This document shows, piece by piece, positions 29,501 to 32,500 of a stretch of 64,000 bases of DNA; position 1 is the stretch's first letter; the number at the start of each line of letters is the position of its first letter. Made by a program: the position numbers. Origin of the DNA: Candidatus Spyradenecus sp. (GTDB lineage: Bacteria; Verrucomicrobiota; Verrucomicrobiia; Opitutales; UBA953); contig JAZSKX010000014.1 in assembly GCA_045535075.1 (NCBI GenBank), forward strand, positions 211,411-275,410, in the 5' to 3' direction.

Positions 29501-32500
29501 CTCATCGCGCTGGCGTTGGCTCCGTTCCTGAACAGCCCGATCTTCGGCGGGATTTTCAACTTCATTCAAGAGTTCCAAGGCTTCATCTCTCCGGGCGTGC
29601 TCTGCGTGTTCCTGTTCGGCTTCTTCGTTCCGAAGTGCCCGCGCGTGTTCGGCTGGCTCGGTATCGCCGTGAACGCCGTGCTTTACGGTGCGTTGAAATG
29701 GACGCCGGCGACGGCGGATATGGCGTTCCTTAACCGTATGTCGATTTGCCTGATCGTGTGTATCGCGATCGGAGCGTTGCTTACGATTTGTAATGCGGCT
29801 CGCGGCGGACAGGCGATTCTCGTTCCCGCGAAGAACGAAGTTCCGCTGGAAGGTTCCGGAAAGGCGAAGGCGTTCGGCGCATTTGTCGTCGTGGCGACCG
29901 TTGCGCTTTACATCCTCTTCTGGTAATTCGTTTTACCGAAAACAAAAAGCGTTCCCGTGGTATTTGTCGCGGGAACGCTTTTTTGTTTTTGCGGGATTTA
30001 TCTTAAGCTTAGAAATAAAAAAGTTCCCGCAGGAAAAACTTGCGGGAACTTTTTTGAGCGGCTAGGAAATTCGCTTAGTCGATTTCTTCGACCGTGATTT
30101 CGTGAGCCGTGCCGTTGACGTTCAGAGAAAGATTCGTGATCTTCTCGGAGAGGCTCGCACGCCCGGAAATTGCAGGCGTTTCCGTAGCGGGTGCCGGAGC
30201 CGGAGTAGCGGGTTTCGGCTCTTCCTTCGGCGGGAAGTAGAGTTCCTTGACCTGTTGCGGGAACATCGCGTAGATAACGCAGTGTTCGTCGTCCGTCGGA
30301 AGATTGTTTTCCTTGAGTTCCTTGCGGAGATCGTCCATGCGCGGCTTGAGCAAGTCTGCCGGACGGCAAGAAATCGGATCTTTTTTCGTGCGTTCCGCAG
30401 CGAGCTTCTGAATTTCGGGATCGACCGGAGCCGGCGTTTGCCCGAAATAGCCGAGAGCAATGTCCATCGCGCCCGGAATAAACTGTTTCCAACGACCGAA
30501 CTTGACGTTCATCGCCGCCTGCGTGCCGACGATCTGCGAAGTCGGCGTAACGAGCGGAATCCAGCCGAGCTTTTCGCGGATGTAAGGAATTTCCGCGCAG
30601 ACTTCTTCGAACTTGTCTTCCATTTTGAGTTCTTTGAGCTGATTGCGGAAGTTCGAAAGCATCCCGCCCGGGACTTCGTAGCGGAGCGCGTCGATGTTGA
30701 CGACTTCGTTCTTGTGGCTCGTAAACTTGGAAAGCTCTTCGTAGATGCCCTTTTCGTATTCGGAAATTTCTTCGATGAGCTTTGCGTCGTAGCTCGGGCA
30801 ACGCGGATGACCTTTAAGAAGAGCCATCATGCGCGTGTGGTCCGGATGCGCCGTGCCGTCGGAGAACGGGCGAATCGCGACGTCCACCGCGTCCACGCCC
30901 GCGTCGATTGCCGCGAGGTAGGACGAAGCACCGAGCCCCGTCGTTTCGTGCGTATGGAACCAAACGGGCACCTTCACGTTGTCCTTCAGTCCCTTGATAA
31001 TATCGTAAGCCGCGCGCGGCGAAACGAGCCCCGCCATGTCTTTGAGGCAGATGCTGTTCACGCCCATTTCCGCGAGCGTGCAACCGAGCTTGATGAAGCC
31101 TTCGACGGTGTGCACCGGGCTGTTCGTGTAGCAAATCGTGCCTTGAGCTTCGCCGCCGGCTTTTTTCGTTGCTTCGATTGCCGTCTTCATGTTGCGCGGG
31201 TCATTGAGCGCGTCGAAAATACGAATCGTGTTCATGCCGTGCTTAACCGCCTGCGTCGCGAACGCGGTAACGACATCGTCCGGCGACTGATTGTAGGCGA
31301 CGATGTTTTGCCCGCGCATGAGCATCATGTGCGGGGTTTTTGTCTTGGCGCGGATTGCGTCGAGGCGCTTAAACGGAAATTCTTTGAGGAAGCGCAATCC
31401 GGCGTCGATGGAAGCGCCGCCCCAGGTTTCGAGACGCCCGTAGCCGACGGCATCGAGCTTGTCCAAAATGGGAAGCATCTGCGCCGTGCTCATGCGCGTT
31501 GCCGCGAGCGACTGGTGTGCGTCGCGGAGAAGTGTACTGTTGAATACTACCGGTTTCATAATAATTACAGATTCTCTTTTTTAGAAAAAGGCTTGTCGAG
31601 CTTTAACGGTTTTTTAGGAAAATAACGCCTCGCGGGAGCGCCGGAGGTAATTTGTTCGCCATACGGGAACTTCCTTTGTTTAATAAACGCTCTATGGAAT
31701 CTCCGCTTATTCAAAATCCGAAATTGTTCCCGTCGCTTGAAGCGGCGGTGGCTCGCCGAAAAGAACTTGCCGAGTCCGGGAAAAAACTTGTTTTGACGAA
31801 CGGCTGTTTCGACCTTCTTCATTGCGGACACGTGTATTATTTGCGTGCGGCAGCAAAACTCGGCGATGAACTTTGGATCGGGCTTAACGGTGCGGATAGC
31901 GTGCGCGCGCTCAAAGGTCCGACGCGTCCGGTGCAGGGCGATTTGGAGCGTGCATTTACGCTTGGGGCGCTTGAGTTCGTCTCGGGAGTTTTCTTTTTTC
32001 ATACGCCGCGCTTGGATGCCGAAATTCGTGCTCTTCGTCCGGACGTTTACGCGAAGGCGGGAGATTATACGCTTGAAACCCTCAATCCGGACGAACGGGC
32101 GGCGTTGCTTGAATGCGGCGCGGAAATTGAATTTCTTCCCTTTTTGCCGGGATTTTCCACGACGAGTTTAATCGGAAAAATTTCGCAGGCAGCCGCTGCG
32201 GGAACGCTCTAACGAAGCTCGGAAAAACGAAACCCGGAAAATGAAAAAAGTATTCACGCGATTTTTCGGAATTTGCGCGTTTGCGTTTTTTTCTGCGGGA
32301 ACACCGCTTGTCGGCGCGGAAGACGCGGCGTCCCGTGTCTTTGTTGTGGCTGCTTCTAACGATGCCGATTCTATTGAACTTGCGGAATATTACATGTCGC
32401 GCCGCGGAATTCCCGCTGAAAATCTCATTGCACTCGCTTTACCCACGGAAGAAACCGTTTCGTGGAAAAGCTTTGCAGATGAAATTCACGCGCCTTTGCT

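Follow-up and report, generated by a model that had tools for sequence, protein, structure and literature searches.

Candidate ATP-free transcarboxylation route to malonyl-CoA in Verrucomicrobiota lacking biotin carboxylase

The genome of Candidatus Spyradenecus sp. analysed here (GCA_045535075.1, hereafter G000; 1.95 Mb, 99.45% complete) retains the genes of type II fatty acid synthesis but has lost those of acetyl-CoA carboxylase (ACC). The carboxyltransferase parts that remain suggest that malonyl-CoA for fatty acids and lipid A is likely to come from ATP-free transcarboxylation, with oxaloacetate as the main carboxyl donor and with a 5S-type subunit, a biotin carrier and a 12S-type subunit as the machinery. 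That the 12S subunit and the carrier make malonyl-CoA, whichever the donor, appears highly probable. The 5S gene lies in the window, i.e. the stretch of 64,000 nucleotides of contig JAZSKX010000014.1 that was analysed (positions 211,411 to 275,410), and is unlinked to its partners, which are located on contig C5 (Table 1).

Table 1. Features of the window (first three rows) and partner genes on contig C5
Feature	Position	Strand	Basis
Pyruvate/oxaloacetate carboxyltransferase of the 5S/OadA type, carrier-less, 494 aa (g00209)	30075..31559	-	ORF, domains and alignment
Pro/Ala linker and short beta-hairpin-like tail, C-terminal end of 5S	30078..30218	-	Alignment to 1rqb reaching residue 492
Perfect 15-bp inverted repeat with A/T tails, putative terminator	30017..30055	.	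Read directly from the sequence
12S/MmdA carboxyltransferase (g00392)	C5, 40356-41969		Carboxyl_trans match
Run of delta, carrier (g00525), small ORF and beta	C5, 187411-189978

Loss of the carboxylase and the remaining carboxyltransferase parts

The proteome was scanned for targeted families. A profile search with Biotin_carb_C gave no match in G000, an ATP-grasp scan detected only a CarB-sized gene and weak matches, with no biotin carboxylase (BC), and tblastn searches with AccC, AccB, AccA and AccD of sister genera matched only the CarB and 12S genes; the ATP-dependent BC that would identify an acetyl-CoA or pyruvate carboxylase was not found. FabD, FabH, FabF, FabG, LpxC-FabZ and LpxA exceed the NCBIfam cut-offs, and FabV, ACP and BirA were detected by motif. 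The Biotin_carb_C, tblastn and NCBIfam results thus confirm the statement of an earlier note on this DNA that BC, AccA and AccD are missing despite the retention of the fatty acid synthesis genes. A search for deletion scars was uninformative, the neighbours of the acc genes in related groups of the family (g2, g3 and g5, see below) being scattered in G000.

The window gene encodes an intact protein with HMGL-like and PYC_OADA domains, in which the domain scan detects no biotinyl domain. The closest solved relative is the 5S subunit of the Propionibacterium transcarboxylase (1rqb; E 4e-118, residues 7-492 aligned), and a hand count on the printed alignment gives ~210 identical residues out of 491, reproducing the 43% identity reported previously. 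The score of 454 bits with PRK12330 is below the equivalog cut-off of 827, which places the protein outside the Propionibacterium orthologue group. The motifs RDAHQ, KDMAG, HTH and VTPTSQ are all intact, with R12-D13-Q16, K173, H202/H204 and T338 in place; from the literature on 5S and pyruvate carboxylase, we take these residues to be catalytic, forming the metal and carbamyl-Lys site. At the sequence level, the protein accordingly has the features of a carrier-less 5S subunit of transcarboxylase (EC 2.1.3.1). The C-terminal tail, which is probably a docking element, aligns with the tail of the Propionibacterium 5S and resembles the N-terminus of the only biotin carrier of the genome. The inverted repeat, with a loop of 9, starts 20 bases past the stop codon and is probably an intrinsic terminator, even though it is absent from the list produced by the terminator scanner. 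The gene is flanked by an unrelated sodium:solute symporter on one side and a cytidylyltransferase-like gene on the other. An RNA-library contig spans positions 30112-31545 with 16 differences; because all four runs concerned are contigs from a single study, in which DNA may be present, this match is not taken as evidence of expression. The described sequencing runs that contain the gene come from gut or faeces samples.

The only Carboxyl_trans match in G000 is full length and corresponds to the 12S gene, whose product matches 12S with E 1.7e-170 (53% identity according to the earlier note); a single biotin carrier was found among the matches to EAMK-type motifs. On C5, a delta-like membrane protein, the carrier, a small membrane ORF and beta follow each other in this order, ~145 kb from the 12S gene, and in four other genomes (G012, G016, G026 and G029), 12S heads this run. 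Thus, the full-length 12S and the separate carrier expected of a transcarboxylase are present but the cluster encoding a soluble 5S/12S/carrier enzyme free of pump subunits is not, given that the carrier adjoins delta and beta. The sequences also include the components expected of a Na+-translocating decarboxylase, namely, a carrier, a beta subunit with the catalytic aspartate in a retained GGADGP motif, and a membrane anchor, the delta-like protein, which matches OAD_gamma weakly (E 0.42; E 1e-5 to 4e-3 for homologues in the same position). A complex prediction for 12S with the C-terminal region of the delta-like protein scored 0.00, which counts neither for nor against their association. Because the predicted function resembles that of a transcarboxylase whereas the clustered soluble enzyme is not found, the assembly, likely a hybrid, is denoted here a hybrid 5S/12S/pump complex.

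Phyletic distribution, the acyl pocket and a second gene arrangement

The family set consists of 137 genomes of mixed completeness, which fall into the genus of G000 (g1, 19 genomes), g2 (10 genomes) and g3-g5 (108 genomes). The pattern is reciprocal: g1 encompasses 5S, 12S and beta without BC, whereas g3-g5 mostly have BC and lack the other three. Specifically, BC is found in 0/19, 2/10 and 96/108 genomes of g1, g2 and g3-g5, respectively, 5S in 19/19, 8/10 and 0/108, and beta in 19/19, 7/10 and 0/108; full-length 12S is present in 19/19 and in 8/10, some of the g2 genes being broken at contig ends, and in 0/108, where only halves of AccD/AccA size occur. Within the family, 12S, the carrier and beta share the distribution of 5S. 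Among the non-genus genomes that are at least 90% complete, 41 of 44 possess BC, so that the genus-wide loss reported earlier (0 of 18 genomes against 41 of 44) holds with the larger genus set. The earlier counts for 5S fare differently: those for the genus (16 of 16) extend to all 19 genomes but the 2 of 25 given for other genomes is replaced by the g2 and g3-g5 figures above, and BC is missing from 8 of the 10 g2 genomes as well. One of the two g2 matches to BC is a true accB-accC pair, accompanied by accA (G007), and the other is a pyruvate carboxylase (G010). A loss specific to the genus was therefore rejected, BC being missing in most of g2 and elsewhere in the phylum. Methylmalonyl-CoA mutase is present in only 6/19 genomes of g1 (7/10 in g2 and 0/108 in g3-g5), and hence propionate formation cannot explain the 12S gene that is kept in the other 13 genomes of the genus.

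In the RpoB tree (FastTree), g1 groups with the ACC-bearing g4 and g5 rather than with g2 (support 90), and therefore, the ACC losses in g1 and g2 look independent; a joint loss is disfavoured by this position and by the presence of accB, accC and accA in G007. The 5S of g1 groups with Opitutaceae such as Ereboglobus (support 99), and a quick tree of 21 rows under LG+G4 rejects monophyly of the g1 and g2 proteins (p-AU 0.003). The beta subunit of g1 is 63-68% identical to the MadB-like betas of Opitutaceae, compared with 30% to the g2 type, and the g1 12S forms a long branch outside both groups in a quick tree. The description of 5S as gained is in line with this affinity of the genus copy to Opitutaceae and not to g2 but is tempered by the wide spread of 5S in Opitutales and Akkermansia. 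Transfer within the order, preceding the ACC loss, is plausible.

In the phylum sample of 331 genomes, each at least 92% complete, BC was not found in 75, a count that includes three possible assembly misses (G326, G367 and G457; 92-96% complete, from mostly BC-bearing families). PYC_OADA is present in 75/75 of the BC-less genomes compared with 188/256 of the BC-bearing ones, where the latter number includes ordinary pyruvate carboxylase and related genomes are not independent. FabD was detected in all 80 BC-less genomes tested (71 outside the genus and 9 within it) and in 5/5 in another scan, and beta in 68/71 of the BC-less genomes outside the genus. Apart from the possible misses, the BC-less genomes belong to two types. 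Type A, with one full-length 12S and no AccA or AccD, accounts for 31 of the 75 and comprises g1, 23 genomes of g45, which groups with named Akkermansia, and G295, G462, G287 and G444; type B, with AccD and AccA kept, accounts for 41 genomes in 12 families. BC, the only gene examined in five named genomes, is missing in four of these: Akkermansia glycaniphila, Intestinicryptomonas porci, Ca. Merdousia gallistercoris and Ereboglobus sp. PH5-10. These distributions suggest that an ATP-free shortcut arose several times in the phylum, including Akkermansia.

The acyl pocket of 12S provides a further sign. In a gap-free alignment, Ile408 of 12S corresponds to residue 422 of Streptomyces coelicolor PccB, where, according to the consulted portion of PMC7835884, the D422I (Asp-to-Ile) substitution admits acetyl-CoA as a substrate, AccB has Ile, and the residue is an important but not the sole determinant of specificity. 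Among 49 Verrucomicrobiota 12S sequences, Ile is found in 26 of 27 BC-less rows, the exception being G295 with Leu, and Leu in 20/20 BC-bearing rows outside the family, which were picked from the best full-length matches; Ile is also present in both BC-bearing g2 genomes, G007 and G010. On the quick 48-row 12S tree, three changes are needed for this residue: g2 and G462 branch from within the Leu-bearing sequences, whereas g1 and g45 lie outside them, where the change could have gone in either direction. Thermotoga maritima, BC-less in the control set, has Ile, and the Propionibacterium 12S has Leu. T. maritima already displays the pattern of a BC-less, FabD-positive genome in the control sets.

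The type-B gene run provides the most direct clue to the route. Of the 18 BC-less type-B genomes examined at these loci, 9 have accD-accA, fused to each other in two cases, directly 5' of a gene for 5S/PycB fused to a biotin carrier; accD-accA and the fusion are apart in 7/18, and the loci are broken at contig ends in 2/18. The AccB model TIGR00531 is the best match of the fused carrier in 6/6 cases tested, and a control OadA tail is best matched by OadA. At metagenome loci, accA or accD is directly upstream in 30/80, all within the closest 45, and the available flanks of these 45 contain no BC; PEPCK directly precedes accD at two loci (L321 and L332). Three genomes (G279, G445 and G452; 93-96% complete) have the run and no beta match, and a second BC model, PF00289, was negative in 5/5 type-B genomes. 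Two BC-bearing genomes (G276 and G395) have the run too, and at 10/80 loci, more distant ones, BC is found beside a similar gene, in several cases one with a carrier like AccB; this suggests that the arrangement derives from a carboxylase shared between pyruvate and acetyl-CoA, through the loss of BC. The fusion belongs to a 5S clade distinct from that of the window protein, so that for the genus it offers an analogy, not proof.

The proposed route and its alternatives

In the proposed route, GTP-dependent PEPCK, found in 19/19 genus genomes, would convert PEP, CO2 and GDP to oxaloacetate and GTP; 5S would transfer the carboxyl group of oxaloacetate to the sole biotin carrier and thereby release pyruvate; 12S would pass it from the carrier to acetyl-CoA, yielding malonyl-CoA; and FabD would drain the product. 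Because 5S and 12S share the only carrier of the genome, the transfer is expected to take place provided that acetyl-CoA is a substrate of 12S. Together with the membrane-bound beta, the same three proteins probably also act as a decarboxylase that pumps Na+, in which case beta would compete for carboxybiotin while pumping Na+, with supply in the reverse direction possible in principle; the earlier caveat to this effect stands. That the subunits form a complex, which substrates they use and in which direction the flux runs are predictions of this scheme. What is seen directly, namely, the missing genes, the conserved and co-distributed parts, 12S without the mutase, the Ile residue, the type-B run elsewhere and the 5S/OadA match in every BC-less genome, adds support to the oxaloacetate route put forward in the earlier note, which we nevertheless still infer. 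Several observations point the other way. With pyruvate kinase not found in any of the 4 genus genomes tested, 5S and beta could have been retained as an oxaloacetate pump of glycolysis that takes no part in making lipids; the 5S and 12S genes are not linked in G000; and the residue pattern has its exceptions in G007, G010 and G295, with Leu in the Propionibacterium 12S as well. With regard to the surrounding metabolism, PPDK and PFOR were detected by motif, malic enzyme gave a family match below the cut-off, and a plasmid search with PEPCK added nothing.

The most serious competitor, albeit an unlikely one, retains 12S and the carrier as the source of malonyl-CoA but derives carboxybiotin mainly from a reversed beta subunit, driven by Na+ influx and CO2, with 5S only feeding an oxaloacetate Na+ pump. 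It is kept as a rival by the universal presence of beta, with the aspartate motif kept, in the genus and its prevalence in the other BC-less genomes, and by the four genomes in which 12S joins the run of delta, carrier and beta while 5S lies apart; Dimroth and Hilpert reportedly reversed Na+ decarboxylase pumps in vitro in 1984. Such reversal would, however, have to overcome decarboxylations of about -34 to -37 kJ/mol (PMC8085960, in the part consulted) and thus call for a large Na+ force directed into the cell, whereas the shared carrier permits direct transfer near equilibrium. Furthermore, three BC-less genomes have no beta but 0/75 are without 5S, and in other lineages, AccD and AccA adjoin the 5S fusion, not beta.

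Import of malonate, activated by g00262 or a CoA-transferase, with 12S and the MadB-like beta decarboxylating malonate for energy, seems improbable to a still greater degree. It is true that the malonate-pump model gives the beta subunit of the genus its highest score (TIGR03136, 448 bits, below the cut-off of 596.9, vs 193 bits for TIGR01109, cut-off 190.6), and the genome encodes a succinyl-CoA:acetate CoA-transferase and two membrane proteins that resemble dicarboxylate carriers in their N-termini. However, similar MadB-type betas are found in mmd runs of ACC-bearing Opitutaceae, and the four AMP-binding proteins match MbcS/acetate-CoA ligase, Aas, OleC and MenE. The best matches of g00262 are MbcS and acetate-CoA ligase, with PRK07514 (malonyl-CoA synthase) not in the best 25 of 87 families, so that this protein looks like an MbcS/acetate-CoA ligase rather than MatB; the malonate activation that the earlier note left open is thereby weakened, and survives at the low probability given here. 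MdcA/MadA (PF16957) is absent in 5/5 genomes, motif patterns for MadL, MadM and MatB gave no match, and in place of the MadA/MdcA, MadC/D and MadL/M set that would accompany MadB in a malonate decarboxylase, there is a single full-length carboxyltransferase. Malonate import also leaves the dependence on 5S and the type-B run unexplained.

The two weakest alternatives are both very improbable. Lipid A requires 3-hydroxyacyl-ACP from the elongation cycle; this demand, the FabD present in every BC-less genome tested, the intact FabH, FabF, FabG, FabZ and LpxA, and the 12S retained without mutase argue against scavenging of fatty acids through Aas, with little need for malonyl-CoA and purely catabolic carboxyltransferases, which the Aas-like acyl-ACP ligase and the gut or faecal origin of the described samples would favour. 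An unrecognized enzyme or an over-divergent BC that yields malonyl-CoA or malonyl-ACP draws its plausibility from the targeted scope of the proteome scan, and is countered by the ATP-grasp scan, the AccC tblastn search that returned the same locus only, the negative PF00289 results and the lack of a true thiolase in the search for one.

Returning to transcarboxylation, we lean, somewhat less firmly than for the genus itself, towards transfer from oxaloacetate to acetyl-CoA as the native and sole source of malonyl-CoA in up to 75 of the 331 sampled genomes, Akkermansia included. It would proceed by two routes: the co-option of a hybrid Na+-pump 5S/12S assembly together with a Leu-to-Ile change in the pocket, and a dedicated AccD-AccA-5S::AccB enzyme whose oxaloacetate carboxyltransferase takes the place of AccC and which is at times encoded together with PEPCK.

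Known systems and implications

The transcarboxylase of Propionibacterium freudenreichii (EC 2.1.3.1; 5S/12S/1.3S) shares with the proteins described here a carrier-less 5S with the same tail, a full-length 12S and a free carrier. Its chemistry is established in vitro, and it takes acetyl-CoA in vitro, as stated in the consulted part of PMC8085960, citing Swick and Wood 1960. In contrast, the genes here are unlinked, the carrier belongs to a delta/beta pump run, the mutase is absent in 13/19 genomes, Ile replaces Leu, and ACC is missing, so that the proposed job would be anabolic, unlike that of the Propionibacterium enzyme. With Na+ decarboxylases (OadABG, MmdADECB and MadB), the assembly shares the beta Asp motif, a delta/gamma-like anchor, an MmdC-like carrier, and MmdA-like and OadA-like transferases; it differs in that two transferases share a single carrier and a single beta, the OadA-like protein lacks a carrier of its own, and the MadB-like beta occurs without the other malonate genes. 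Compared with AccABCD, the product and the second half-reaction would be the same, and type-B lineages still encode true AccA and AccD together with a carrier of the AccB type but there is no ATP-dependent BC, and in the genus all four genes are gone.

The concept is already in print as a modelling assumption. Clostridium thermocellum likewise lacks the standard ACC, and a metabolic model assigns malonyl-CoA production to a putative transcarboxylase, Clo1313_1523-1526, on the basis of the Propionibacterium enzyme (PMC5414155, in the section consulted, which offers neither a comparative nor a biochemical test of it); this organism belongs to a different phylum. Excerpts of two other papers report that the cluster includes a putative pump gamma subunit (PMC5887222) and that the carboxyltransferase was seen on native gels without other ACC subunits (PMC3039559). 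The parts consulted of PMC3199775, PMC12541407, PMC6593406 and PMC7459334 do not address the question, and 'transcarboxyl', 'carboxyltransferase' and 'oxaloacet' do not occur, by term search, in a review from 2026 on alternative ways of making malonyl-CoA (PMC12799670). Searches of the open-licence literature turned up no paper that deals with missing ACC in Spyradosoma or Akkermansia or with the AccD-AccA-5S::AccB run, and no report of repeated loss in Verrucomicrobiota, mutase-independent retention of 12S or the residue pattern.

ACC is regarded as indispensable for initiating fatty acid synthesis in bacteria and is an antibiotic target. If the proposed route is real, metabolic models of energy-limited gut anaerobes would change, with approximately one ATP per two-carbon unit saved when oxaloacetate is supplied by GTP-dependent PEPCK, and the organisms would be predicted to be insensitive to biotin carboxylase inhibitors. 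The assumption made for C. thermocellum becomes testable in cultured BC-less Verrucomicrobiota, namely, Akkermansia glycaniphila, Intestinicryptomonas porci and Ereboglobus sp., and the AccD-AccA-5S::AccB set, three genes in all, is a candidate for use in boosting malonyl-CoA supply.

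Genomes without biotin carboxylase outside the genus

Biotin carboxylase was not found in the Akkermansia-group genome G463 (locus L189) or in the 23 genomes of the group that clusters with named Akkermansia, several of these being one-contig assemblies, and each encodes only one full-length carboxyltransferase. The acyl-pocket residue, aligned to position 422 of S. coelicolor PccB, is Ile, rather than Leu, in all nine 12S subunits examined from Akkermansia-group genomes. One of the control genomes, that of Thermotoga maritima, is also without biotin carboxylase, with PYC_OADA, Carboxyl_trans, OAD_beta and FabD all present; the closest solved structure to the 12S of the Spyradenecus genome is 1vrg, the carboxyltransferase of T. 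maritima.

Decarboxylase subunits, mutase and central metabolism

The mmd gene runs of Opitutaceae and of the study genus contain a MadB-like beta subunit (loci L002, L212, L215, L219 and L221), accompanied by a canonical beta in two Opitutaceae loci. The mutase is present in only 6 of the 19 genomes of the genus, and in these six the 12S does not adjoin beta. Pyruvate kinase was not found in the Spyradenecus genome or in G014, G015 and G016, all of which have GTP-dependent PEP carboxykinase; the Spyradenecus genome also has PPDK and malic enzyme, a combination that resembles C. thermocellum glycolysis. The OleC-like, OleA-like, alpha/beta-hydrolase and KAS with ACP genes dispersed over this genome possibly represent an olefin biosynthesis set.

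Features of the Spyradenecus genome (contigs C1, C2, C5 and C12), its window and an mmd gene run
Feature	Location	Strand
OleC-like ligase	C12:40124-41788	
OleA-like synthase	C2:60911-61939	
Long alpha/beta-hydrolase protein	C1:67601-70534	
Second KAS with ACP	C5:194212-195735	
MbcS-like ligase, then meaB, epimerase, both mutase subunits (L101)	C2:30354-37714	
MadB-like beta	L002:4501-5979	
Single-domain globin (PF00042)	window 33971-34498	-
DHH/DHHA2 pyrophosphatase-like protein, CBS and DRTGG domains	window 21258-22946	-
816-aa ORF with GHSMG-like hydrolase motif, then 335-aa ORF with N-terminal membrane segment	window 37505-40964	+

Carboxyltransferase–carrier fusions

In six loci (L359, L360, L368, L371, L372 and L374), biotin carboxylase lies directly 3' of a 5S fused to an AccB-like carrier, possibly an ancestral arrangement, with a single carrier serving two carboxylations. 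In genomes lacking biotin carboxylase, the gene after accD-accA encodes a fusion of a 5S/PycB domain with an AccB-type carrier (L190-L193, L260, L262, L265, L267 and L268), an order that recurs among the metagenome loci L314-L358, with PEP carboxykinase immediately 5' of the run in L321 and L332. The product of this run is a candidate dedicated oxaloacetate:acetyl-CoA transcarboxylase that merits separate study.
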